Assembly (NCBI GenBank): GCA_964016885.1
Contig: OZ024749.1
Coordinates: 30,938,001-31,002,000, forward strand
Length of the DNA stretch: 64,000 nucleotides
Source: Eledone cirrhosa
Lineage: Eukaryota
Direction of reading: 5' to 3'
The notes beneath the pieces were generated by a model, which saw nothing but the letters and a program-made list of their open reading frames with translations, was not told the origin of the DNA and made no database searches. Positions within the stretch are counted from its first letter, which is position 1; every line of letters begins with the position of its first letter. Shown in pieces: positions 32,841 through 34,085 of this stretch. A program made the translations under genes and the position numbers.

Positions 32841-34085
32841 GATAATTTAATATATCTATTAACATAAGCGCACAGATGTACGCCAATGCCAGCAAATACA
32901 CAGGTTATGTCATAGTACCTAGGTGGTTCGATGCAGGAGAATGCAGAACAATAATATAAAAGACGTAAAATAAGAAAATAAATTTTTTTTTTTTTTTTTT
33001 TTAAATTAACTTACTTACTTAAATTTTCACTCCAACTAATTAGTTTCTGCAATGGGATAAAGACAGTTACGTAATGAACCGTTGAGAATTTCATTGCGTC
33101 ATCAGAGAGGTCATTCTCAGCCGAGTCTCCAGGCGATGCGCGGACACTGGCGACTCATATAAAAATAATAATAATTCGGTAAATGGAACAGCTATCGAGG
33201 ACTGGATTCCAGCTACTGAAAATTCTCACTGCCACTGATCATATGGCCGATTCTAAAGAATCAATCACGTGACACAGAAGCTAGTCAGTAGGAATGGGGT
33301 GGTAAGATGACAAGCGCCTACTAACACCCCCAAAAAAAATTTTTAGAAGTGGTTTTGGCAGGTTTGCTCGACAGATCAGTGATTTGGAGATAAATATAGA
33401 TAATTTAATATATCTACTAACATAAGCGCACAGATGTACGCTAATGCCAGCAAATACACAGGTTATGTCATAGTACCTAGGTGGTTCGATGCAGGAGAGT
33501 GCAGAACTATAATATAAAAGACGTAAAATAAGAAAATAAAAAAAAAAATAAAAATAAAAAAAAATTAACTTACTTAAATTTTCACTCGCTGGCATTGGCG
33601 TACATCTGTGCGCTTATGTTAGTAGATATATTAAATTATCTATATTTATCTCCAAATCACTGATTTGTCGAGCAAACCTGCCAAAACCACTTCTAAAAAT
33701 TTTTTTTGGGGGGTGTTAGTAGGGGCTTGTCATCTTACCACCCCATTCCTACTGACTAGCCTCTGTGTCACGTGATTGATTCTTTAGAATCGGCCATATA
33801 ATCAGTGGCAGTGAGAATTTTCAGTAGCTGGAATCCAGTCCTCGATAGCTGTTCCATTTACCGAATTATTATTATTTTTATATGAGTCGCCAGTGTCCGC
33901 GCATCGCCTGGAGACTCGGCTGAGAATGACCTCTCTGATGACGCAATGAAATTCTCAACGGTTCATTACGTAACTGTCTTTATCCCATTGCAGAAACTAA
34001 TTAGTTGGAGTGAAAATTTAAGTAAGTAAGTTAATTTAAAAAAAAAAAAAAAAAAAATTTAATTTTTTTATTTTACGTCTTTTAT
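32841..34085. mobile_element. Retrozyme-like element: ~1.3 tandem 558-bp HHR units plus an inverted arm
   Basis: The repeat period is 558 bp (32841 vs 33399). The inversion junction is at 33587/33588. Confidence 0.85.
33931..34010 (+). ncRNA. Type I hammerhead; minus-strand copy at 33030-33109
   Basis: ctct CTGATGA c gcaatg...cattgc a GAAA CTAATTAG TT ggag. Helix III is palindromic and the triplet is GUU. Confidence 0.7.

Follow-up and report, generated by a model that had tools for sequence, protein, structure and literature searches.

A hammerhead repeat family inserted head-to-head in (TA)n tracts, with paired 3' ends and a small excess of 5' ends at the predicted ribozyme cut

Animal non-LTR retrozymes are tandem arrays of non-coding units with one type I hammerhead ribozyme (HHR) in each, reported at unit lengths of 51-972 bp and proposed to be mobilised by Penelope-like elements (PLEs) (Cervera and de la Pena 2020, PMC7229834; Li, Clavereau and Pollet, bioRxiv 10.64898/2026.07.22.740005), and the self-processing of their RNAs in vivo is already known (PMC7229834). 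PLEs carry minimal, dimer-dependent HHRs with a helix I of 4-5 bp, an extra nucleotide after A9, a G-C pair at the base of helix II and a palindromic helix III implying dimeric cleavage (PMC4209133). Genomic PLE copies include partial tandems and inverted 5'-truncated copies of the pLTR, with the inversion on the 5' side and a tail at one end, in microsatellite targets (PMC3846280; PMC8557442). This tail measures 30-40 bp, is optional or often found at one end only (PMC3846280, PMC8557442), and lies between two reverse transcriptase (RT) start sites, without strand preference in vitro (PMC11167929). In the Poseidon element PAc of Anolis carolinensis (Frangieh et al. 2024, PMC11167929) two internal start sites lie 30-40 nt apart downstream of the HHR, the target is AT-rich, both strands are cut and extended, and mostly uncut RNA is used; the hammerhead cut was dispensable for the reconstituted element in vitro, where HHR mutants had no effect on insertion, and it was not seen in RNA-seq, zero RNA reads ending there. 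The role of hammerheads in endonuclease-bearing PLEs is stated to be unclear (PMC8557442), and PMC9977147, in its accessible part, offers nothing in favour of the idea that PLEs prime through microhomology. Genomic ends are mapped in Fig. S2 of PMC11167929, which may be relevant to the junction questions raised here.

Here we describe a hammerhead repeat whose copies show two fixed 3' ends, paired in 108 of 109 resolvable inverted insertions, scattered 5' ends and an approximately 3-fold excess of 5' ends at positions -2 to +1 around the predicted cut. By its sequence the element fits an animal non-LTR retrozyme, one of thousands of copies: the units are tandem and non-coding with one type I HHR each, their length lies within the reported range, and the proposed mobilisation by a PLE is shared. 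Insertion junctions are not mapped in the accessible parts of the retrozyme papers, whereas the paired 3' ends, the inverted arms and the cut-site excess of 5' ends are counted here. With PAc the element would share two internal start sites downstream of the HHR, an AT-rich target, the cutting and extension of both strands and the use of mostly uncut RNA. It differs in the distance between those sites (about 120 nt), in their use (one site per arm in 108/109 loci, against no strand difference for PAc in vitro) and in a modest surplus of genomic ends at the cut, where PAc gave no RNA reads (PMC11167929). The published inverted pLTR copies have the same partial tandems, 5'-side inversion, one-ended tail and microsatellite targets; they were described qualitatively and for autonomous elements, whereas here a non-coding family follows the pattern almost without exception, with a tail of about 120 nt instead of 30-40 bp (PMC3846280; PMC8557442). 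A search that covered few subscription papers and no supplements found no report that 5' junctions are enriched at the hammerhead cuts of PLEs or retrozymes, or that the two start sites are strictly paired.

The window analysed is a stretch of 64,000 nt (G000:C9:30938001-31002000) from an animal genome of 3.0 Gb that is AT-rich and (TA)n-rich. Unit positions are numbered from the predicted hammerhead cut, +1 being the first base past it. The features of the locus are listed in Table 1.

Table 1. Features of the head-to-head insertion, in window coordinates
Feature	Position	Strand	Remarks
(TA)n target microsatellite, left flank	32647..32840		
Left arm	32841..33587	-	unit +2 to +555, then next unit +1 to +194 (3' end B); 747 nt
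Type I minimal hammerhead, left arm	33030..33109	-	core 33105-33099; predicted cut between 33034 and 33033, read through here
Strongest hairpin of the unit	33410..33460	-	+129..+179, between the two fixed 3' ends
Head-to-head 5' junction	33587..33588		left-arm +2 abuts right-arm +138; microhomology none
Right arm	33588..34087 (end approximate)	+	unit +138 to +555, then +1 to about +75 (3' end A)
Type I minimal hammerhead, right arm	33931..34010	+	predicted cut between 34006 and 34007
Stem I	33931-33934/34007-34010	+	one G.U, private to the window copy
Core	33935-33941	+	
Stem II	33943-33948/33986-33991	+	
GAAA	33993-33996	+	
12-nt palindrome	33995-34006	+	
(TA)n target microsatellite, right flank	34088..34225		

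The layout was re-derived and agrees exactly with the first-pass annotation on the main point, a minus-strand arm that starts at 33587, one nucleotide inside the predicted cleavage product. The two arms meet with no shared and no inserted base, which leaves no ambiguity in the assembly about the +2 start; public contigs, in which the neighbouring A-tract was skipped, did not cover this junction. Both outer ends pass into (TA)n, and the left arm holds one intact HHR between its +2 start and its +194 end. Identity between the arms is 98.4%, and both have a stem I variant that occurs in 4 of 252 motif hits, all within these two arms, so a single source for both is probable. The unit length of 558 nt given earlier holds for the repeat period at the tail; at the head the period is 555, because the two heads differ in an A/T tract. 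Within the left arm 22-24 columns distinguish the two heads, against 2 between the terminal heads of the two arms, a contrast that speaks for a linear multimer or template switch as the source rather than for one monomer circle.

The hammerheads were located by a motif scan, one per arm; Rfam at gathering thresholds gave 0 matches in the window. The core CUGAUGA fits the conserved CUGANGA, GAAA and UH elements and is nearly invariant among copies, and the sequence at the predicted cut is GUU/GGAG in both arms (the slash marks the cut). Stem II has 6 bp and closes 37 nt, and it is followed by GAAA and a perfect 12-nt palindrome that ends in GUU at the cut. Helix I consists of 5 Watson-Crick pairs in 240 of 252 motif hits and of 4 bp, with a G.U, in the window copy. 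An extra C after A9 and the G10.1-C11.1 pair are present, nearly all copies have an extra A between C11.1 and G12, and at the base of stem II a C faces an A within the core. The element has the features listed above for minimal dimer-dependent PLE HHRs, except that the extra A keeps the G10.1-C11.1 pair from standing directly before G12; it differs from them also in the 37-nt helix II loop and a palindrome that is a perfect 12-mer finishing at the cut (PMC4209133). As a dimer duplex, the helix III palindrome (-12 to -1) has -10.8 kcal/mol; the monomer HHR fold has -4.9 kcal/mol, far above the minimum of -13.8 kcal/mol. Two subfamilies that are 88% identical show 45 differences outside the A/T tract and 0 in the 44 core and helix nucleotides (p 0.014). 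Self-cleavage at the GUU/GGAG site is predicted. A frame of about 27 codons at 33946-34030 has its ATG inside stem II, as does the PAc ORF; by eye it is kept by compensating indels in two subfamilies and broken in a third.

An anchor covering +2 to +20 has 3592 exact matches genome-wide, and 51 loci spanning the first 100 of these were retrieved. They yielded 109 cut-to-cut units in arrays of 2-4 (overlapping loci were not de-duplicated), each with a type I HHR; the longest stop-free frame in the element has 110 aa. Nearly all arms finish at one of two 3' points, A (about +75) or B (about +194), next to (TA)n or (TC)n, and both sites finish in TATA-like bases that match the target. The 5' ends, unlike these two fixed 3' ends, are scattered. 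Inverted loci combined A with B in 74 of 74 resolvable cases (9 others could not be resolved), and among 60 further loci the combination was found in 34 of 35 with two arms. This last count includes one locus scored by eye (L232) and excludes L256, where a (TA)n spacer parts the arms. The combined figure of 108/109 is a stronger pattern than the excess at the cut, and it suggests that priming takes place at two fixed positions of the RNA, +75 and +194.

The sole exception is a B+B insertion (L238, G000:C12:10515400-10518900) with a short arm from -2 and a long arm near +8. The strongest hairpin of the unit has -26.8 kcal/mol, computed on a close relative, and a second copy of it lies at about 32852-32902. 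Some family copies were amplified together with their flanks: 15 copies 1.6-4.4 kb apart at G000:C12:24495304-24530039, an array with a spacing of about 2.5-3 kb at C28:45835759-45850619 and 9 copies 39-65 kb apart at C12:16980458-17444728; each such group was counted once. Two apparent 5'-end hot spots were discarded, that at +128 to +144 because it came largely from selecting full-length hits (genome-wide there are 50 ends in 15 nt, with a maximum of 7) and that at +514 because it was a subfamily alignment artefact.

The 5' ends were counted with a genome-wide junction search for arms whose upstream bases cease to match the unit, sampling 63 of the 555 unit positions with tallies made by hand. 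The cut region gave 85 rows, 16 of which were dropped as indels, internal deletions or duplicates; of the control rows, 17/20 were kept at +3..+6, 50/50 at +129..+143, 22/40 at +173..+181, 56/82 at +458..+469 and 65/94 at +526..+537. Arms start at +2 in 5 cases, at +1 in 14, at -1 in 16 and at -2 in 12, while -9 to -3 hold 22 in total. Re-reading by script of the rows from retrieved loci gave the same peak, and suggests that one dropped row (L045, at -7) is real, which would bring the last figure to 23. The controls, 232 ends over 59 positions including the 22 at -9 to -3, have a mean of 3.9 per position and a raw maximum of 11, and positions -2, -1 and +1 have the three highest raw counts of the 63. 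Together these three hold 42 ends, against 26 in the best raw 3-nt run of the controls and an expectation of 11-13 when uniform starts were simulated with realistic flanks and a bias to microhomology, a ratio of 3.2-3.7; compared with the +526..+537 window alone, p is at most 2e-6. The first-pass annotation had suggested mapping the 5' junctions of the copies for enrichment at the cut, with a uniform distribution as the contrary outcome; at family level and over the sampled positions the ends are not uniform and the enrichment is about 3-fold. The footprint at the predicted cut is real but small. The excess amounts to about 27 ends, or about 1% of the arms crossing the site, of which about 98% read through, so most templates were uncut. 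Since copies start at the cut about 3-fold more often, the RNA is probably cleaved in cells from time to time, and the earlier proposal that the ribozyme created the 5' end of the template is likely to be right some of the time for the family; for the window copy, as set out below, it fares less well.

A mirrored pattern was used to find loci in which both arms start within 30 nt around the cut. It returned 10 loci, 6 of which have both starts at -2 to +2 and 3 more one start at -1 or +1; the same design at a control position returned 2 loci. The six are insertions of about 280 bp that join +1..+75 to +1..+194, lie in separate places on four contigs, and have unrelated immediate flanks and different arm variants. 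An insertion of this form is what would be left by two cDNAs running off one cleaved 5' end. Near-symmetric junctions occur at other positions too (about 5 of 27 unbiased two-arm loci), and there as well the arms are usually minimal. An origin of symmetric junctions by annealing through the 12-nt palindrome was considered and rejected, the expected junction being found in 0/10 loci.

Given a real peak, cleavage is its likely explanation, although the ends at -1 and -2 (28) outnumber those at +1 (14). In simulation, a true start at +1 with chance matches would place 64% of ends at +1 and 5% at -2; adding one or two untemplated A's to half of the cDNAs gives 32/37/28% at +1/-1/-2, close to the observed excess. 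Because the template reads UU at -2/-1, read-through and added A's look alike. The second HHR family of the window has C at -1 and could separate the two; its junction search returned 0 rows, a result that carries no weight either way. Stalling of RT on uncut RNA, at the edge of the helix III palindrome or at a protein-bound ribozyme, would produce a peak in the same place without cleavage, since the palindrome spans -12 to -1 and self-pairs (-10.8 kcal/mol), which puts its edge right at the cut. Positions -1/-2 do account for two thirds of the peak, and the base of another hairpin (+433..+466) has a 1.6-fold bump in ends. Yet ends do not pile up at the 3' base of the -26.8 kcal/mol hairpin (22 in 9 nt), +1 alone is enriched 4-6-fold, and in the six loci above both arms stop within 2 nt of the cut, so we regard stalling as an unlikely source of the peak.

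The template may instead have been a monomer circle, cleaved and religated, on which rolling RT makes the tandem arms and pauses at the ligation scar; this would still imply ribozyme activity in vivo, with no free 5' end. Animal retrozymes accumulate as circles (PMC7229834), read-through is about 98% and some arrays have identical heads (L146, for example), but the head differences within the window insertion fit a linear multimer or template switch, and we consider the circle very unlikely. Over 29 loci, the comparison of head variants for circle against linear templates favoured neither, because the A/T tract mutates fast. Chance is to be weighed as well: junction choice may be lumpy through microhomology and AT bias, with the cut sitting on a bump and the window copy an ordinary truncation. 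The control variance is indeed twice the mean and +2 is at background; after rough coverage scaling a single control position reaches about 14, and the best control 3-nt run, at about 35, comes closer to the 42 at the cut. A negative-binomial test that allows for this scaling and for the overdispersion nevertheless gives p 4.5e-4, simulated microhomology bias lowers the expectation at the cut, and the excess of both-arm loci has p of about 1e-5 under a symmetric null, which makes chance highly improbable.

Our preferred reading, which we hold to be fairly probable as a whole, is that the 555-nt repeat inserts head-to-head into (TA)n, with a PLE-type RT priming on both cut strands at +75 and +194, and that the ribozyme occasionally cuts its RNA. 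The conservation of core and helices between the two subfamilies counts in its favour; the C facing an A at stem II, the weak monomer fold and the PAc results count against it. Tandem copies would be transcribed as multimers, and two hammerheads could dimerise by way of the palindromic helix III to cut a minor share of the RNAs after GUU. An endonuclease-bearing Penelope-like enzyme would nick both (TA)n strands and begin one cDNA per site. The majority of cDNAs would stop early or pass uncut or religated sites, while about 1% would reach a cleaved 5' end and run off it, in many cases gaining one or two non-template A's that read as -1 or -2. The two cDNAs would then be joined head-to-head. 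A stricter form has the priming obligate, asymmetric and twin, with a dimer on one RNA making one cDNA per fixed site and target strand; the hammerhead 5' end would then give the joint run-off seen as the 280-bp insertions with both arms at the cut, and the genome would hold a record at single-base level of its firing on the RNAs that transposed (about 1%). On this form we are evenly divided. Use of the cut site is likely but confined to about 1% of passes, which would make cleavage a minor route to insertion, and the known self-processing of retrozyme RNAs in vivo limits the surprise of a footprint at the cut. The family does offer a countable genomic trace of hammerhead use, and the 108/109 pairing predicts for the in vitro system that each event uses one start site per target strand.

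For the window copy itself the case is weaker. The caution of the first-pass annotation that a single case could be chance was well placed, as a lone junction is weak when the target is a span of a few nucleotides in 555 and there are thousands of arms, two to a locus. Starts at +2 number 5 against 3.0-4.4 expected, which is background. In the both-arm loci (the six and L036) 3 of 14 arms start at +2, so the loss of one base does occur. The window arm ends at B, and B arms make up 23/34 of the cut-starting arms against 29/84 of the others (p 0.001, post hoc and partly by eye), and 11/20 against 10/40 in a held-out set read by script. As +2 is not enriched, that the window junction derives from a cut, perhaps by run-off with one base lost, is a tentative reading to which we give somewhat less than an even chance. 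A link between cut-starting arms and the full shape of the window copy, a B end plus one extra unit, appeared in the first set (9/14 against 5/44); predicted beforehand for the held-out loci, it failed (1/20 against 1/40).

The unit has no RT or GIY-YIG ORF and so is not an autonomous endonuclease-bearing PLE. Its insertions do show the signature of such elements, namely the partial tandem, the inverted 5'-truncated copy, the one-sided tail and the microsatellite target. The genome has at least 150 listed GIY-YIG frames; among 50 of these 150 loci (10597 candidates), no autonomous partner sharing the unit ends was found, nor, among these loci and the window's own PLE, a homologous pLTR of an autonomous PLE. 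Two partial matches in this search were older copies inserted beside unrelated PLEs. With no partner found, the argument for PLE mobilisation comes from the insertion signature, by which the element is probably a retrozyme mobilised by a PLE. At one locus (L222) a near-complete, frameshifted Penelope-type element with 158-bp direct repeats lies at 5092-8703 on the minus strand inside a LINE fragment, and an older relative of the retrozyme lies in (TA)n downstream of it.

The window contains several other elements. A PLE at 51484-54823 has direct repeats at 51484-52048 and 54258-54823, a second frame from 53415 and a 504-aa frame with a YRDDGL motif, which we take to be RT-like; Pfam gave no match to it. 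Stubs of its repeat end, often inverted, are found at 5960-6149, 21021-21100, 22575-22766, 45196-45339, 49352-49544 and 55262-55424. A 268-aa frame at 25839-26645 resembles by eye the C-terminal endonuclease part of a PLE; Pfam had 0 matches in three window frames. The second HHR unit (27715-29173, period about 537 nt) also has tandem and inverted arms, and the start of its minus arm (28626) coincides with the 5' edge of stem I and not with the cut. Three more hammerhead-like families with a palindromic helix III, some as inverted pairs, occupy 13606-14150, 29246-30460, 10349-10513, 30492-30656 and 54900-55110. A dispersed SINE-like repeat of about 190 bp lies at 30795-30985 and in about 10 other places, its copies being 80-97% identical.
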